Shown: positions 38,683-43,740 of the stretch, piece after piece | Layout of the letters: each line of letters opens with the position of its first letter | Position numbering within the stretch: the stretch's first letter is position 1 | Source: an uncultured Alphaproteobacteria bacterium | GTDB taxonomy: Bacteria > Pseudomonadota > Alphaproteobacteria > RF32 > CAG-239 | Assembly (NCBI GenBank): GCA_934271715.1 | Contig: CAKQRZ010000004.1 | Coordinates: 11,651-75,650 of the forward strand | Direction: 5' to 3' | DNA: 64,000 bases | The notes under the pieces: model-generated | What the model saw: only the letters and a program-made list of their open reading frames with translations | What the model was told of the DNA's origin: nothing | Database searches by the model: none | Position numbers and translations under genes: made by a program

Positions 38683-39361
38683 TTTTCTAACTCCGTTTAA
38701 TTTTGTTGCACATAAACAAAACCCACCAAAATGGCGGGCGGATGTTAGTAAACCGTATACACATAAACGGCTCGGCTTATTCAGCCAAATAGCCTTATTT
38801 AGCCGACATCCGTCCAACGGAAATCGGCATACAAAATTTTAAGTCGCTATGCTGTAACGACTATGTGTATAAAAGGGTTACTACGCCCTAGATAGACTAT
38901 CATCTATCTAATTATAATTTTACTTAAATATTGTCTGAAAGTAAAGATAATTTTATAATTAAAAATTCAATATAAAAGGAGCTAGAAAAAATTCTACCCC
39001 CCTTTGAAAACAATGGTGCCGGTTATGTGACTTGAACACACGACCCACGCATTACGAATAGCGTTTATGCAATACTTTGAGAAAAAAGCATTTTATAATC
39101 AAATGTTTATAACCTTTTATAATAAAGGTTTATTACATTGTGCCAAATTTGTGTCAAATCAATAAAATGATAATATGATTTAATGATGTAATATATTTTT
39201 GTAAAATGATTGATGTTATACTATTACAAAAGTATAGCGTTTTTAACTAACATATTGATTTTTAATGTTTTTATTTTTATGTTTTTCCTATTGACTTTTT
39301 ATGATGTTATGTTATTATGTATATATGATTAAATGATAACATTATAAAAGGATTTTTTGAA

Positions 39362-39952
39362 ATGATTGGCAAGGCTGAAGTTTTGAAAGAATATGATGTC
39401 AGAAACGTGTTGAATATGATTAAGTCAATGGATAACCCACAACGCAACCGCATCATCTTTTTGCTGTCCTATCTTGTTGGTATGCGTGTATGCAATATCC
39501 AAAAATTACAGATTAGCGATGTATTTGACGATAATGGCAAGGTCTTTGATAAAATCGTTCTGTCAAAGGATAAGAACAAATTTCACAAAATTGCTGAATA
39601 TTATCTAAATGATGAAATGAAAAAAGAACTTATCAATTATTACAAGTTTTTGAAAAATGATAAAATGAAATTATGTGAAAATGATTATTTGATTCAATCA
39701 AACAAAACAGGCAAGTATTTGCGAAAAGAAAGCATAGTCCGCATCTTTCGTCAAATCTATGACAAGTGCGGTTTAGCAAAATGCCGCTCGCACTCTGGTA
39801 GACGAACATTTATTACCGATTTATGCGACAAAGGCGTTGCGATTCAGGTTGTTTCAAAGTTGGTAAATCACAAATCAATCAGCACAACAATGGGATATTA
39901 TCAGCAAAATCCCACAACGCTGCTAAACGCTGTCAATGCTATGAGTTTATAG
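39362..39952 (+). CDS. tyrosine recombinase consisting of the catalytic domain only (196 aa)
   Basis: LLSYLVGMRVCNIQKL (box I Arg region), HSGRRTF (HxxR) and STTMGYY (catalytic Tyr). No N-terminal core-binding domain. Confidence 0.65.
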   Translation: MIGKAEVLKEYDVRNVLNMIKSMDNPQRNRIIFLLSYLVGMRVCNIQKLQISDVFDDNGKVFDKIVLSKDKNKFHKIAEYYLNDEMKKELINYYKFLKNDKMKLCENDYLIQSNKTGKYLRKESIVRIFRQIYDKCGLAKCRSHSGRRTFITDLCDKGVAIQVVSKLVNHKSISTTMGYYQQNPTTLLNAVNAMSL

Positions 39953-39961
39953 GGGGTATCA

Positions 39962-40180
39962 ATGAGCAAGTTTAGTGTCTTTACAATCAAATGCCCTGTT
40001 TGCGGCAAAGGCGATATACCTTTTCCTTTTGATGATGACGGGTGCGGATATTGTCGCCATTGCGGGGCAAGTATGGAGCAAATCAGAGAACACTGGGATA
40101 TACAATGCAAGATGGGCGGGTTTGCCGTTCGTGTCATTGTGGCTGTGGCGGTGCTTTCCTACTTGTTTAGCCTTTTTTAG
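39962..40180 (+). CDS. small zinc-ribbon protein with C-terminal TM helix
   Basis: CPVCGKG...CRHCG motif plus a hydrophobic tail. Overlaps the recombinase stop. Confidence 0.45.
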   Translation: MSKFSVFTIKCPVCGKGDIPFPFDDDGCGYCRHCGASMEQIREHWDIQCKMGGFAVRVIVAVAVLSYLFSLF

Positions 40181-40580
40181 TCGCTATTCCTTTGGCAATT
40201 TTCATAGTCTTGATTTTGCTGTCAAGGTGCTTGATAAATTCCGGGTTGTCCGATACCTCTTTTTTGATGGCTTTGTAGATGTCCTTGACTTCTTCAAGCG
40301 AGTAGGCAACATAAGCGGTCGCATTGTTCTCTAAAAAGGGGATAGGCTTGTTCTGGTACTTAATGAAACAGTAGTATGATTGTCTGTCTTCTTTCAGTTG
40401 ATACCACCGCCGAACTGCAAAAGGTGCTTTTTGCTCTCTCAAATCAAACTCAATGTATTGAAGTTGCTTTTCAATCCCTCTCAATATAGTGTTTTTCAGG
40501 GCTTCTTCTTTGTTTTTGGCTTTTGGTGCAATTACTGGCTTTGCTGTTTCTGCCTTAATCATTTTCAAAAATGATGTCAT
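40167..40580 (-). CDS. hypothetical protein (element-borne)
   Basis: 137-aa ORF in an AT-rich element. Confidence 0.45.
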   Translation of the reverse strand: MTSFLKMIKAETAKPVIAPKAKNKEEALKNTILRGIEKQLQYIEFDLREQKAPFAVRRWYQLKEDRQSYYCFIKYQNKPIPFLENNATAYVAYSLEEVKDIYKAIKKEVSDNPEFIKHLDSKIKTMKIAKGIATKKG

Positions 40581-40834
40581 TAAATATGTTCTCCAATGTT
40601 ATCAAAATATTGTTTCATCATATTATTATAACATTGATTCAAAAGAATCAACATAAATATTTTTATGAAAAACCGATTGATACAAATTGATGATATAACG
40701 ATTGACGAAAGTATTATAAAGAATAATACTTTAGTAGACGTTTTGTGCAAACTAATTGCCGCTAAACGATTGCAAAAAACAACTCTGTCAATGTTGGCGG
40801 AGTTGTTAAAAAAATGATTTTGTAAGTAATTGTT

Positions 40835-41341
40835 TTAATTAAATAAAATTCTATTTTTGCAATTTTTGAAAAATGATAGTAGGAAGTTGCATCTTGATTT
40901 AATGTCTTTATGATTTAATGATTCATCAATTAAATAATCAAGATTTTCAGTAATTACTTCTAAATCAATGATGATGTCATCAAGTATTGCAATGGTTGGA
41001 TTATTACCATTTTTCTGTGATGATTTAAAGTAAGAAGGGGATTTTTCAAAATGTCTTGAAAGTCCTTTTCCTGAATGGATTATTCCCAAATCTTTATATA
41101 AAGATGTTAATTCTTCAATCTTTTGATAATATGATTCTTTGATGTCTTGTTTAATTGATTGCTGTTCTTGTCGTTTCTTTTCAAGTTCTTGTTTCTTCTG
41201 GTTTATTTGACTTTGTATGATTGCTTGACGTAGTTGGTTTTTCTGGTATAGGCTGCTGCTCTTCTTCAACTGCTCTCGCTTTATTTTACGGTCCCTGCTG
41301 TATGCTTCAGGGGTGTTATTTTCTGGGTTAGGTGTATTCAT
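40835..41341 (-). CDS. hypothetical coiled-coil protein (element-borne)
   Basis: 168 aa, Q/K/E-rich coiled-coil. Confidence 0.45.
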   Translation of the reverse strand: MNTPNPENNTPEAYSRDRKIKREQLKKSSSLYQKNQLRQAIIQSQINQKKQELEKKRQEQQSIKQDIKESYYQKIEELTSLYKDLGIIHSGKGLSRHFEKSPSYFKSSQKNGNNPTIAILDDIIIDLEVITENLDYLIDESLNHKDIKSRCNFLLSFFKNCKNRILFN

Positions 41342-41974: not shown

Positions 41975-42044
41975 TTTATATACCCTCTTTTAGTCAATTC
42001 ATTTAGGGTAAAAGTCATTTTATCATTTATTCATTATAACATTT

Positions 42045-42165
42045 CATCAATGATTTATTTAATATTAGTTCAATCATTCAATCAATGTTTGTCTTCAATG
42101 ATTATCATCAATATTCGTTCAATCATTTTATCAATCATTCAATCTATGATTTTATCAATGATTGT
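42045..42165. repeat. iteron-like array of CAATCATT / AATGATTG 8-mers (at least 7 copies, both orientations)
   Basis: Read directly from the sequence. Lies in the integrase-initiator intergenic region. Confidence 0.6.
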
Positions 42166-42345
42166 GTCAATATTTAGGTAAAGGTTGGAACTATGCTTTC
42201 ATCTTTCAAAGCATTGCATTAAAACCTATGTCGCTGAAATTAGGATTCATCAATTTGACTTCTACCATTTTTCAAAAAGTATTTATCATCAATACTGGCG
42301 AAAATGGTTTTTTGCAAAAATGGCTTAAATGATTGTTGGGGTCGC

Positions 42346-43413
42346 CTATTTTAGGTCATCTTTGACTAAGTGTATTGCTAAGTGATTATAGTTCTTTTCT
42401 ATCATCTCAATAGATGTGCCGCATTGAATGGCAATAGTGGTCAAAGGTATGTTCTTTTTGATAGCATTGGTTATAAAGGTGTGCCGGAATGAATACAGGG
42501 TCAATTCATTTTTGCCTATCGTCTTTGCCATTGTCGTCTTTTTTAACAATTCATTAAACGATTTTTTGAATGATTTTGTCGGCTTTCCTTGATAATTCAA
42601 GAATATGAAGTCATCATTATTAAATTTAATGTTGTATTGATTATATGTTTCTTTCAATTTTTTGATAATATGTTGTGCATTGTTTGATAAAAAGATGTCC
42701 CTAATTTTCGTTTTTGATGATGTTATTTTGGCGGTGTCTGCTGAAATGCCGCTAAACTTAATGCTTGACGCTTCGCCTGTTCGAATCCCCGTTTCAACAA
42801 GGAATTTGAGAAACAAGCAAAGCATTGTCCGGTCATACCTGATTTTACGGTTTGTGGCTTCCTCAATTCTCTGCTGGGCTGTAGTCATTATTTCAGATAG
42901 TTCTAAGTCCGTGAAAGCGTCTCTTTTTTTCTTGTCCTCTTTCAAACGCTCTATTGATGGCGGTAAATCTATGTAGGACTTTCTTTTAGCGAACTTAAGG
43001 ACTTGCAAAAGTGTGGAGATGTCTCTGTTTATTGTCTGCGGCTTTACTTCATTTAATCGTTTAATCATAAAGTCATTTATTGACTTTTCTGTTAAATCAT
43101 TGATTTTAACCTTGCCAAAGGGTTGATAAAAGACTTGCTTCAACCTTTTTTCATAGTCTTGTTTTTTCTTGTCTTTTTCAATGGTTTTCAAAAACTCTTT
43201 ACAAACCCTTTCAAAGGTTGGGGTGTTTATTATCCCTTTGTTGTAGTCATCAATAATAGTAAAGCATTTATGCAACGCTTGCAAATAGTCCTTTGTGTTC
43301 AAGGATTTTCTTAAGCGTCTGCAATGCTCGGCTATATGGATATAGTAAAAATCATTATCCCTTTGACACAAAAAACCTTTGATAAAGTCATTTTCATAAA
43401 CTATCTGTCGCAT
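42346..43413 (-). CDS. int: tyrosine-type site-specific integrase
   Basis: 355 aa. ETGIRTGE (Arg I), YSFRHTFITNAI (HxxR box II) and EKNYNHL (catalytic Tyr). Adjacent to the tRNA-Thr attachment site. Confidence 0.85.
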   Translation of the reverse strand: MRQIVYENDFIKGFLCQRDNDFYYIHIAEHCRRLRKSLNTKDYLQALHKCFTIIDDYNKGIINTPTFERVCKEFLKTIEKDKKKQDYEKRLKQVFYQPFGKVKINDLTEKSINDFMIKRLNEVKPQTINRDISTLLQVLKFAKRKSYIDLPPSIERLKEDKKKRDAFTDLELSEIMTTAQQRIEEATNRKIRYDRTMLCLFLKFLVETGIRTGEASSIKFSGISADTAKITSSKTKIRDIFLSNNAQHIIKKLKETYNQYNIKFNNDDFIFLNYQGKPTKSFKKSFNELLKKTTMAKTIGKNELTLYSFRHTFITNAIKKNIPLTTIAIQCGTSIEMIEKNYNHLAIHLVKDDLK

Positions 43414-43664
43414 TTTTCGAATCGATATTGTGTTAAATCATTTCATCATATTATTGAATAATTGATAATGTGTCAATATGATTTTATGATTATATGATTC
43501 AAAAATTGTGCCAAATTTGTGCCAAATGTTATAGAATCTATGTTTCATAACATTGTAAAAATCATTATATTTCAATGATTTATGTAAAAATGATGACGGA
43601 GATGTTTTTGACACATTTTTATAAAAAATGGGGTTAGATTTTGCCCTAACCCTTTGAAAAAAAC

Positions 43665-43740
43665 TGGTGCCGGTTATGTGACTCGAACACACGACCCACG
43701 CATTACGAATGCGTTGCTCTACCAGCTGAGCTAAACCGGC
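43665..43740 (-). tRNA. tRNA-Thr (anticodon CGU)
   Basis: Hand-folded. Acceptor GCCGGTT/AACCGGC, D-arm GCTCAGCTGGTAGAGC, anticodon loop TTCGTAA, T-arm GTGTG TTCGAGT CACAT, and an encoded CCA. Confidence 0.85.

Follow-up and report, generated by a model that had tools for sequence, protein, structure and literature searches.

A compact element integrated in a tRNA-Thr gene of an uncultured gut alphaproteobacterium, probably derived from a family of small circular plasmids

In integrative and mobilisable elements (IMEs) a tyrosine integrase is often accompanied by a relative of rolling-circle initiator proteins, and the distinction between such initiators and relaxases is blurred (PMC5704250). 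Islands that occupy tRNA genes restore the gene by bringing in the tRNA half they displace, and leave the displaced piece behind (PMC4383910), and the anticodon loop is a known crossover sublocation for islands (bioRxiv 10.1101/2020.11.02.365908). The tyrosine recombinase-like (TR-like) relaxases MobK, TcpM and MpsA are defined by the absence of the arm- and core-binding domains; their origin of transfer (oriT) lies just upstream of the gene, the nucleophile of MobK is Y179, and MpsA requires a small partner protein, MpsB (PMC8152469). The subject of the present analysis is an insert in a tRNA-Thr(CGU) gene of an uncultured alphaproteobacterium, contained in a 64,000-nucleotide stretch of contig CAKQRZ010000004.1 (assembly GCA_934271715.1), the whole of which is referred to below as the window. 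This insert is probably an intact integrative mobile element that derives from a small circular plasmid family of uncultured gut Alphaproteobacteria.

The minus strand at 43665-43740 carries an intact tRNA-Thr(CGU) gene on which ARAGORN and Rfam agree, and this tRNA is the only known RNA family that Rfam found in the region. The 3' 46 nt of the gene occur in exactly two copies in the window, at 39014-39059 and 43665-43710, which match at 45 of 46 positions (a single C/T difference) where chance leads one to expect none; the direct repeats of the tRNA 3' part that an initial annotation of the sequence had placed at both ends are thus real. The copies lie 4,651 bp apart, start to start, and the insert comprises 39060-43710, or 4,651 bp with one repeat counted in. 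A repeat finder widens the pair to 38999-39059 and 43650-43710 (61 nt, 90% identity, ungapped), the extension beyond the tRNA end being imperfect, with CCCTTTGAAAACAA- at one end and CCCTTTGAAAAAAAC at the other. The GC content of the element is 31.7%, against 44.6% for PPDK and 45.4% for Rho, and the immediate neighbours are AT-rich too (35.0% for a pilin-like gene, 33.4% for an acyltransferase gene). The earlier statement that GC lies below that of the flanks therefore holds against the housekeeping genes PPDK and Rho, but not against the adjacent variable genes (33.4-35.0%). The ends and the seven open reading frames (ORFs) between the repeat copies are as follows.

38999-39059, plus strand: attL, in which 39014-39059 is the displaced copy of the 3' 46 nt of tRNA-Thr, from the anticodon loop as far as the CCA end
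38999-39013: host trailer within attL, its resemblance to the element's own trailer being fortuitous
39362-39952, plus strand: short tyrosine recombinase, 196 amino acids, matching PF00589 over residues 7-184 only
39962-40180, plus strand: zinc-ribbon protein (CxxC...CxxC), 72 amino acids, with a C-terminal hydrophobic helix
40167-40580, minus strand: ORF137, a basic protein under purifying selection
40665-40817, plus strand: ORF50, a small conserved protein found in integrated forms only
40835-41341, minus strand: ORF168, coiled-coil-rich, always directly downstream of ORF207, plasmids included (32-35% identity)
41351-41974, minus strand: ORF207, a candidate HUH Rep-type nicking initiator
42346-43413, minus strand: tyrosine integrase, 355 amino acids, with a core-binding-like and a catalytic domain (PF00589 1.7e-14, phrog_1 8.6e-46)
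43665-43740, minus strand: attR, the intact tRNA-Thr(CGU), with the repeat copy at 43665-43710

The integrase gene begins 252 bp from the tRNA 3' end; the tRNA call, the repeats and the PF00589 and phrog_1 matches together bear out an integrative element in tRNA-Thr(CGU) whose integrase adjoins the tRNA. A second recombinase reduced to its catalytic domain (PF00589 over residues 7-184 of 196) is likewise present at the distal end, as first described, and Pfam and PHROG searches of the ORFs agree with the annotation in finding no capsid, terminase or conjugation genes. The ORFs of 137, 50, 168 and 207 amino acids have no family in Pfam, PHROG, NCBIfam or PADLOC. A defence system was considered and rejected, the sole PADLOC match being a weak one of the integrase to PglZ (E 0.0016), which is not a defence system.

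The origin of the element is indicated by three separate circular replicons of 8,256, 7,432 and 5,383 bp that have its backbone in common. A relative of ORF207 at 54% identity sits on three contigs from three samples (L011, L012 and L013), which are 100% identical circular permutations of one another, each corresponding to one 8,256-bp circle; their terminal overlaps of 141, 127 and 30 nt equal the assembler's k or k-1. The two smaller circles, found via a plasmid gene termed orf310, have terminal overlaps of 141 nt (7,432 bp) and 30 nt (5,383 bp). In all three replicons the order is ParA, a ribbon-helix-helix (RHH) protein, orf310, a 0.5-kb intergenic region, the ORF207 homologue, an ORF of 165-168 amino acids, optional cargo, the short recombinase, the zinc-ribbon protein and an ORF of 130-133 amino acids, the cargo being HpaII or NgoPII restriction-modification and a staphylococcal-type nuclease. 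Identity between element and plasmids is 37-54% for ORF207, 36% for the short recombinase and 31-47% for the zinc-ribbon protein; a match to ORF168 itself was obtained only in the plasmids of 8,256 and 7,432 bp (32-35%). ORF137 may correspond to the 131-133-residue ORF 3' of the plasmid zinc-ribbon gene, to judge from a weak match of 22 residues only to plasmid orf131 (E 0.009). Neither the long integrase nor tRNA sequence was found in the three plasmids. With a shared backbone in which integrase, attP and ORF50 stand in place of ParA, RHH protein and orf310, the element amounts to a plasmid backbone plus a tRNA integrase, and among the alternatives first offered (a satellite, an integrative-mobilisable element, a decayed prophage or an integrated plasmid) the integrated plasmid or integrative-mobilisable element is favoured. 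The product of orf310 (310-320 amino acids, encoded after ParA and RHH) has no Pfam match and seven unnamed relatives only; its identification with a known replication protein was accordingly rejected. The small plasmids (L011-L013, L072, L073) come from gut and other metagenomes, and their nuclease cargo is secreted.

The behaviour of the site among strains was followed in human-gut metagenome contigs (Hadza and other cohorts) that encode exactly the window's Rho protein, and contigs are labelled by L numbers throughout. The empty site, which the annotation had proposed to look for in related genomes, is present in L001, L003, L004 and L005 with breakpoints at the repeat: the tRNA is intact, the insert is precisely absent, and the order is Rho, acyltransferase, tRNA, pilin-like gene and PPDK with nothing between. 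L003 aligns to the window in two parts, 35001-39065 and 43650-47000, which overlap by 65 bp at the tRNA as predicted for an empty site; on the tRNA side its dS to the window is 0 in the acyltransferase gene and 0.018 in Rho. The same site is occupied in L002, L050, L018 and L007-9. Other host genes include ATP12, CarD, SecB and AsmA.

The gene set of the element also recurs at four or five other tRNA genes:

L010: tRNA-Thr(GGU), 3' half; perfect 47-nt repeat, tRNA position 31 through the 3' end and 2 nt beyond; 5,142 bp
L019: tRNA-Ala(GGC), 3' half; 49-nt repeat, anticodon loop through 4 nt beyond the end; about 5.1 kb (repeat spacing 5,118 bp)
L016 (7470-13507): tRNA-Ala(GGC), 5' half; 43-nt repeat from position -1 to 42; 5,961 bp
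L014: tRNA-Pro(GGG), 5' half; contig end only
L051: tRNA-Ala(GGC), 5' half; contig end only

The presence of these relatives in four or five other tRNA genes, with half-tRNA repeats, requires repeated site-specific integration. Selection on the element points the same way as to its integrity: dN/dS is 0.05-0.27 for all seven ORFs, ORF50 included (against L010 and L014, with dS of about 0.4-2), and amino acid identity to these two is 91-92% for the short recombinase, the most constrained gene of the element, 64-86% for the integrase and 69-79% for ORF207. Every gene is under purifying selection and the element is not decayed; with the architecture kept at other tRNAs, that label can be dropped. 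An alternative is that the insert is a fixed, immobile remnant whose presence and absence reflect homologous recombination between strains. The host population is indeed highly recombinogenic, for the dS of neighbouring genes spans 0 to 1.1 in one and the same strain pair, a strongly mosaic pattern; the divergence between window and L018 is the same for element and host; and the tRNA-side junction of L018 is rearranged and probably recombination-incompetent. Exact empty sites with an intact tRNA, selection on every gene, intact catalytic residues in both recombinases, and close relatives with matching half-tRNA repeats in other tRNA genes nevertheless make a remnant very unlikely.

The rebuilt junction of L018, which is the GTDB representative, lies at 12233-12450 of that contig and reads, in order, the element end, a different complete tRNA-Thr(CGU) of 77 nt, about 55 nt resembling the left arm of another element, and a host tRNA-Thr remnant that lacks the T arm and the 3' strand of the acceptor. 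The L018 element can probably no longer excise, the function of the tRNA having been replaced there.

In every family case the block of identity is bounded on one side by the anticodon loop and on the other, to within a few bases, by an end of the tRNA gene, a geometry that would place the crossover in the anticodon loop. The extension past the tRNA end, which the annotation had taken to define the att core precisely, does not have this role: relatives extend only 2-4 nt past the end, the 12-nt extension isn't constant (the attL host trailer of L002 and L050 reads GACTCCTAAAAGAA), and the element's own trailer varies between copies (AAAAAAAC or AAAAGAA). In attP a near-symmetric GCGTT/AACGC pair is kept around the anticodon loop, and a crossover there is consistent with this pair, with the element-borne terminator-like hairpin and with tandem TGTGYCAAAT pairs that flank the core on both sides (39139-39159 and 43507-43527). 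The arms are laid out as follows.

39060-39361: P' arm and regulatory region, with tandem TGTGYCAAAT x2 at 39139-39159
39174-39187 and 39324-39337: 14-nt motif TATGATTWAATGAT in the P' arm
39291-39318: promoter-like TTGACT-16-TATTAT, facing the short recombinase gene
43414-43664: P arm, with tandem TGTGCCAAAT x2 at 43507-43527
43437-43498: copies of the 14-nt motif TATGATTWAATGAT in the P arm, at and upstream of the integrase promoter-like site
43476-43448, minus strand: integrase promoter-like TTGACA-17-TAATAT
43652-43631, minus strand: element-borne terminator-like hairpin for the tRNA, directly past its 3' end

Analogous tandem pairs of different sequence are found in L019 and L014, as one would predict if arm-type sites co-evolve with the integrase. 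The 14-nt motif TATGATTWAATGAT, with one mismatch allowed, occurs eight times in the window, always inside the element, against an expectation of 0.16; it is present in both arms, and copies overlap the -10/+1 regions of the promoter-like sites of the short recombinase and integrase genes. It turns up again in L010, L014 and L051, while in the 8,256-bp plasmid, the sole one of the three scanned, it was not found. These copies are, we infer, putative binding sites for the integrase, ORF50 or a regulator. As observed in L016, L014 and L051, whose integrases are 51-64% identical, the tRNA 5' half is duplicated up to the anticodon loop, which means that the element must supply the upstream region of the tRNA in these cases. 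The orientation of tRNA-Ala(GGC) relative to the integrase gene is opposite in L016 and L051.

Of the four ORFs that the annotation had left as small and hypothetical, the 207-residue one turned out to be a candidate HUH initiator with a conserved, hairpin-bearing, origin-like site upstream. ORF207 contains YFISINP (66-72), IIIE115, NH125-I-H127-II and Y174-INK177; F67, I70, P72, E115, H125, H127, Y174 and K177 are invariant in 13-16 family members down to 26% identity, the consensus being (Y/W)FISI(N/Q)P, FNH(I/L)HI and YxxK, and in order and spacing these invariant residues correspond to the Rep-class HUH endonuclease motifs I, II and III. The family is small, with relatives in 13 clusters among 5.8 billion proteins and in five among 1.84 billion representatives, and no match to ORF207 was found in PLSDB plasmids or INPHARED phages (tblastn), in IMG/VR or among PDB sequences. 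An earlier AlphaFold model was poor (predicted local distance difference test, pLDDT, 66) and had a hit to a RAYT HUH transposase (E 0.029); once four more distant homologues were added, AlphaFold2 gave an alpha/beta sandwich with pLDDT 85.8 and a predicted template-modelling (TM) score of 0.82, in which the HxH lies on strand 125-130, E115 on the neighbouring strand 110-115 and Y174 on helix 168-176. Foldseek comparison with the viral models of BFVD named parvovirus NS1 (7.4e-4), a microvirus replication initiator (8.3e-4) and several CRESS-virus Reps as best matches, with E values from 7e-4 to 5e-2, probabilities up to 0.99 and low TM scores (0.3-0.4). ORF207 would represent a new family of HUH rolling-circle initiators with no Pfam model, a candidacy that is well supported by the motifs and only moderately by the modelled fold. 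An iteron-controlled theta plasmid was also considered as a model for the element and rejected, as ORF207 has no Rep_3 or RepA winged-helix match and is an alpha/beta sandwich with an HUH signature, and as repeat number varies freely.

[quoted passage not shown] The best structural matches of ORF207 are indeed ssDNA-virus Reps, the microvirus initiator included, and the element is very small, with several small proteins of which one has a membrane helix. Yet the non-recombinase ORFs have no PHROG match, no capsid, Zot-like or scaffolding gene is present, and searches of 2.9 million viral contigs in IMG/VR and of 50,697 phage genomes returned no ORF207 relative. Virion, packaging and helper-interference genes, or a presence in viral collections, as would mark a prophage or phage satellite, were not found, and the nearest relatives are ParA-bearing plasmids with restriction-modification cargo, so that a phage satellite seems scarcely credible.

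The two sites of note upstream of ORF207 are these:

42047-42163, plus strand: TCAATSATT array of six units at about 12- or 24-bp spacing
42171-42300, minus strand: conserved cis block upstream of ORF207, with a candidate origin or nick site

The cis block contains a hairpin (42193-42214, ATGCTTT/AAAGCAT), directly after which the ORF207 strand reads AGTTCCAACCTTTACC (42192-42177). The 110-130 bp upstream of ORF207 are 75% identical to the 8,256-bp plasmid, compared with 66% for the gene itself. The stem sequences of the hairpin differ by lineage yet always pair, in five or more stems: ATGCTTT/AAAGCAT in the window, ACCCTTT/AAAGGGT in L019, ACTCATTT/AAATGAGT in L073, ACGGCT/AGCCGT in L072 and GTGATTTAT/ATGAATCAC in L017. 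Each stem is directly followed by AGT(T/G), with TTTAC a few bases on in most. This candidate hairpin-AGTT site looks like an HUH nick site or double-strand origin. The repeat array that the annotation had described in terms of iterons is real: TCAATSATT occurs 13 times in the whole window against 2.5 expected, and six same-strand copies fall in 42047-42163, between the cis block and the start codon, where they overlap the ORF207 promoter-like site (42170-42141, minus strand). The array shrinks or vanishes in relatives, and we take it for a set of binding or operator sites, not for iterons of the classical theta type. A 29-nt direct repeat (39310-39338 and 41585-41613, 28 of 29 positions matching) was also observed, one copy of which lies at the short recombinase promoter-like site while the other encodes the HUH motif of ORF207 (ISFNHIHIIT); on the opposite strand the 39310-39338 copy would read ...SFNHIYIIT. 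L019 has three copies of an analogous 30-nt sequence, located upstream of each recombinase gene and also behind the integrase gene. The repeat may represent a fragment of the gene, an operator common to both places or a gene-conversion tract.

In the second recombinase and its 17 relatives of 191-204 amino acids R42, K73, H144, R147, H170 and Y179 are invariant, and the nearest solved proteins are XerA (1e-16), XerH and XerD, matched over their catalytic domains only (residues 106-274 of XerA). The gene stays paired with the zinc-ribbon gene in plasmids and integrated forms alike. Since it is present in plasmids that have no integrase, its primary role is not integration, and the short recombinase and its zinc-ribbon partner are inherited plasmid functions. 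For this pair a role in multimer or cointegrate resolution is a tentative assignment, to which we give a little under an even chance; service as a MobK/MpsA-type relaxase is possible but clearly less likely, the remaining weight falling on other roles. In a Legionella plasmid the short recombinase gene adjoins parB, a neighbour that is typical of multimer-resolution functions, and of 815 PLSDB plasmids with similar short recombinases 370 are typed as non-mobilisable.

These facts bear on a rival account of the whole element as an IME in which the short recombinase, perhaps with its zinc-ribbon partner, acts as a relaxase of the MobK/TcpM/MpsA type on an oriT in the AT-rich 300 bp upstream, ORF207 serving for circle replication only, or the reverse. 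In its favour stands the fit to the known TR-like relaxases: these have no DNA-binding domains, and the 196-residue recombinase consists of a catalytic domain only, with its catalytic residues kept and Y179 invariant; known systems place oriT just upstream of the gene and employ the small partner MpsB (PMC8152469), and here the most conserved gene of the element is everywhere paired with the zinc-ribbon gene. Moreover, no canonical relaxase is encoded by the element or the plasmids. Comparison of the family profile with TcpM, however, gave an hhalign probability of 0.6%, and a relationship to a proven TR-like relaxase was thus not found. That the closest solved relatives are Xer-type resolvases, that 370 of the 815 PLSDB plasmids concerned are typed as non-mobilisable, that the Legionella gene lies beside parB and that the sequence upstream of the short recombinase gene is not conserved between element and plasmids all speak against this account, which we regard as unlikely, if worth keeping in view.

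Distant short recombinases (about 190 amino acids, 26-38% identity) were observed in Rhodospirillales, Magnetovibrio, Betaproteobacteria and other genomes (L021, L022 and L026, for example). About 10 of the 27 lie no more than 8 kb from a long integrase, three of them beside a tRNA, so the two-recombinase layout may be more general. A long integrase and a tRNA gene are frequently found a few kb away from these short recombinases, with unrelated cargo in the interval; with the settings used, L021 and L022 yielded no direct repeats of tRNA origin. A bolder and rather doubtful proposal is that the short recombinase and the membrane-anchored zinc ribbon form a new type of TR-like relaxosome, the element then being a minimal IME with three DNA-cleaving enzymes (integrase, HUH initiator and TR-like relaxase). 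If this were true, the islands of Rhodospirillales and Magnetovibrio that have the same layout, the long integrase at the tRNA and the short recombinase at the distal end, would point to a widespread and unrecognised class of mobilisable elements in Alphaproteobacteria.

The surroundings of the element suggest one further role for the short recombinase, that of a FimB-like invertase that flips invertible promoters of the host. An invertible promoter segment was observed at 43817-44006, about 100 bp past the tRNA, with paralogues at 12182-12361 and 59577-59754; its 28-nt inverted repeats (GTGTGTAAAAAAAACGACCGTT...) surround 134 bp with TTGCAA-N17-TACATT directed toward the Acyl_transf_3 gene. 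The two other copies in the window are 80-83% identical and adjoin paralogues of the pilin-like gene, and the element is inserted between the inverton and the pilin-like gene at 38038-38817. A member of this inverton family thus adjoins the element, the recombinase has the size of Fim-type invertases, and it matches the NCBIfam model 'tyrosine-type DNA invertase' at 2.5e-8. The match to Xer-type models is far stronger (2.3e-21), though, the recombinase is kept in free plasmids, nothing resembling the inverton repeats turned up within the element, and the inverton is flipped in L004, where the site is without the element; the invertase proposal is most improbable. Relative to its flanks the inverton has the window orientation in L001, L003, L005 and L007.

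Other observations concern the variable neighbourhood. The prepilin-like gene at 38038-38817, which adjoins attL, is hypervariable (79% amino acid identity to L018, dS up to 1.1) and belongs to a family with several copies in the window, paralogous N-terminal regions lying at about 11906-12066, 15626-15779, 59870-59973 and 61031-61148. In the L002/L006 lineage the acyltransferase gene (window 44016-45182) and its inverton are missing and the tRNA adjoins Rho directly. Rho of this lineage is only 87% identical in DNA (dS 1.09) while its protein is identical, and dS on the PPDK side is 0.2, which indicates a mosaic neighbourhood.

For the plasmid-derived integrative element that we favour, the following cycle is proposed. 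The integrase would bind its arm sites, a tandem TGTGYCAAAT x2 on either side, together with the anticodon stem-loop, and attP, carrying the tRNA-Thr 3' half and its own terminator, would recombine with the chromosomal tRNA gene. This recombination would regenerate the tRNA, the displaced half remaining as attL. Excision would possibly be aided by ORF50, a candidate excision (directionality) factor by inference only. After excision, ORF207 would nick at or beside the hairpin-AGTT site upstream of its own gene and prime rolling-circle synthesis, which could serve maintenance of the circle, transfer of single-stranded DNA, or both.

Several points weigh against this account. As to the crossover, the 3' half is of the G..C variant in every attL copy, across three host backgrounds, and the attR copies covary with the host's 5' half; for this haplotype pattern a crossover close to the CCA end is a better fit than a crossover in the anticodon loop. 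As to the initiator, the HUH call rests on the motifs and on modest Foldseek scores with low TM values; ORF207 matched none of the PDB structures at E < 0.1, where the Rep domains of adeno-associated virus, nanovirus and circovirus appear among generic ferredoxin-like folds only, and no Pfam (13 members, E up to 10), PHROG or NCBIfam model. The true Rep of the free plasmids could instead be orf310, which is present in all of them, and ORF207 would then be mainly a transfer nickase. As to mobility, dS between the window and L018 is about 0.1-0.2 for element and host genes alike, so that the pattern of presence and absence could also stem from a long stay of the element with loss now and then, or from homologous recombination that replaced the site, and recent horizontal transfer of the window copy is not demonstrated. 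Neither an excised form nor a circular attP junction was seen. The 4.9-5.1-kb contigs L009, L050, L014 and L051 were considered as circular forms and rejected: their terminal overlaps of 0, 16 or 21 nt are unlike k-1, and they are integrated or broken inside the repeats. The attP junction pattern had no match in JGI metagenomes or IMG/VR, collections without the element altogether, and a control pattern for the attL/attP side had no match in JGI either, which makes this negative uninformative.

The significance of the locus lies first in the natural match between a free plasmid backbone and a derivative of it that integrates, in which a partition/orf310 module has been swapped for a tRNA integrase. 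Such a swap turns a replicon into a chromosomal island, here in uncultured bacteria that are common in human gut metagenomes. A very narrow new family of candidate HUH initiators is defined together with its probable nick site, and the element offers a compact system in which to study the function of catalytic-domain-only tyrosine recombinases on plasmids, several hundred sequenced plasmids carrying such proteins. Finally, one integrase lineage switches between the 3' and 5' halves of tRNA genes.

How, then, does the element relate to described systems? It has the marks of an IME, namely its own integration and excision module without mating-pore genes, and in place of a canonical relaxase it has two non-canonical candidate nickases, ORF207 and the 196-residue recombinase. 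Streptococcal IMEs with Rep_2, Viral_Rep or PHA00330-type putative relaxases (PMC5704250, PMC5357655) are alike in their small size, in a single site-specific tyrosine integrase located at one end, in integration into the ends of conserved genes or tRNAs with regeneration, in a nickase (here a candidate one) of the HUH or rolling-circle replication type, and in the lack of mating-pore genes. The present element differs from them in its alphaproteobacterial rather than Firmicute host, in an ORF207 that lies outside those Pfam families and belongs to no curated Rep family (Rep_1, Rep_2, Viral_Rep or others), in the added catalytic-domain-only recombinase with its zinc-ribbon partner, and in having direct relatives among free plasmids. 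The integrative and conjugative elements of actinomycetes (AICEs) of the pSAM2 type (10.9 kb; PMC2440964) are likewise plasmid-like, integrated into a tRNA gene by a tyrosine integrase and provided with a rolling-circle initiator (in the present element a candidate one) that acts after excision, but the element is half the size of pSAM2 and from another phylum, no Xis or Pra homologues were detected in it, and the FtsK/SpoIIIE-like Tra protein by which AICEs transfer double-stranded DNA is absent from all its ORFs according to Pfam. SGI1, a Salmonella IME with Int, MpsA plus MpsB and Rep_3, and the small mobilisable plasmid pIGRK with the relaxase MobK resemble it in having a catalytic-domain-only protein beside a separate integrase or replication protein (PMC8152469), and MpsB and the zinc-ribbon ORF are both small partner genes directly downstream. 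In contrast to these systems, no sequence-specific relationship was shown for the short recombinase (TcpM being the one compared), relaxase activity is predicted at most, and the partner is a membrane-anchored zinc ribbon whereas MpsB is a helical CB-like protein.

Islands of the Islander type that use the anticodon loop (PMC4383910; bioRxiv 10.1101/2020.11.02.365908) share the regenerated tRNA, the displaced fragment at the far end and the integrase that adjoins the tRNA; some members of the present family (L016, L014 and L051) differ in carrying the 5' half and inserting on the upstream side, which is rare among described islands. With no Tra protein, no curated Rep family and no demonstrable relationship to TR-like relaxases, the element is a member of none of the compared systems: it behaves as an IME or integrative plasmid, yet it belongs neither to the streptococcal IMEs nor to the pSAM2-type AICEs nor with SGI1. 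What is new here is the candidate HUH family and its site, the host lineage, the pairing of a short recombinase with a zinc-ribbon protein, the existence of plasmid counterparts, and the switching between 3' and 5' tRNA halves.

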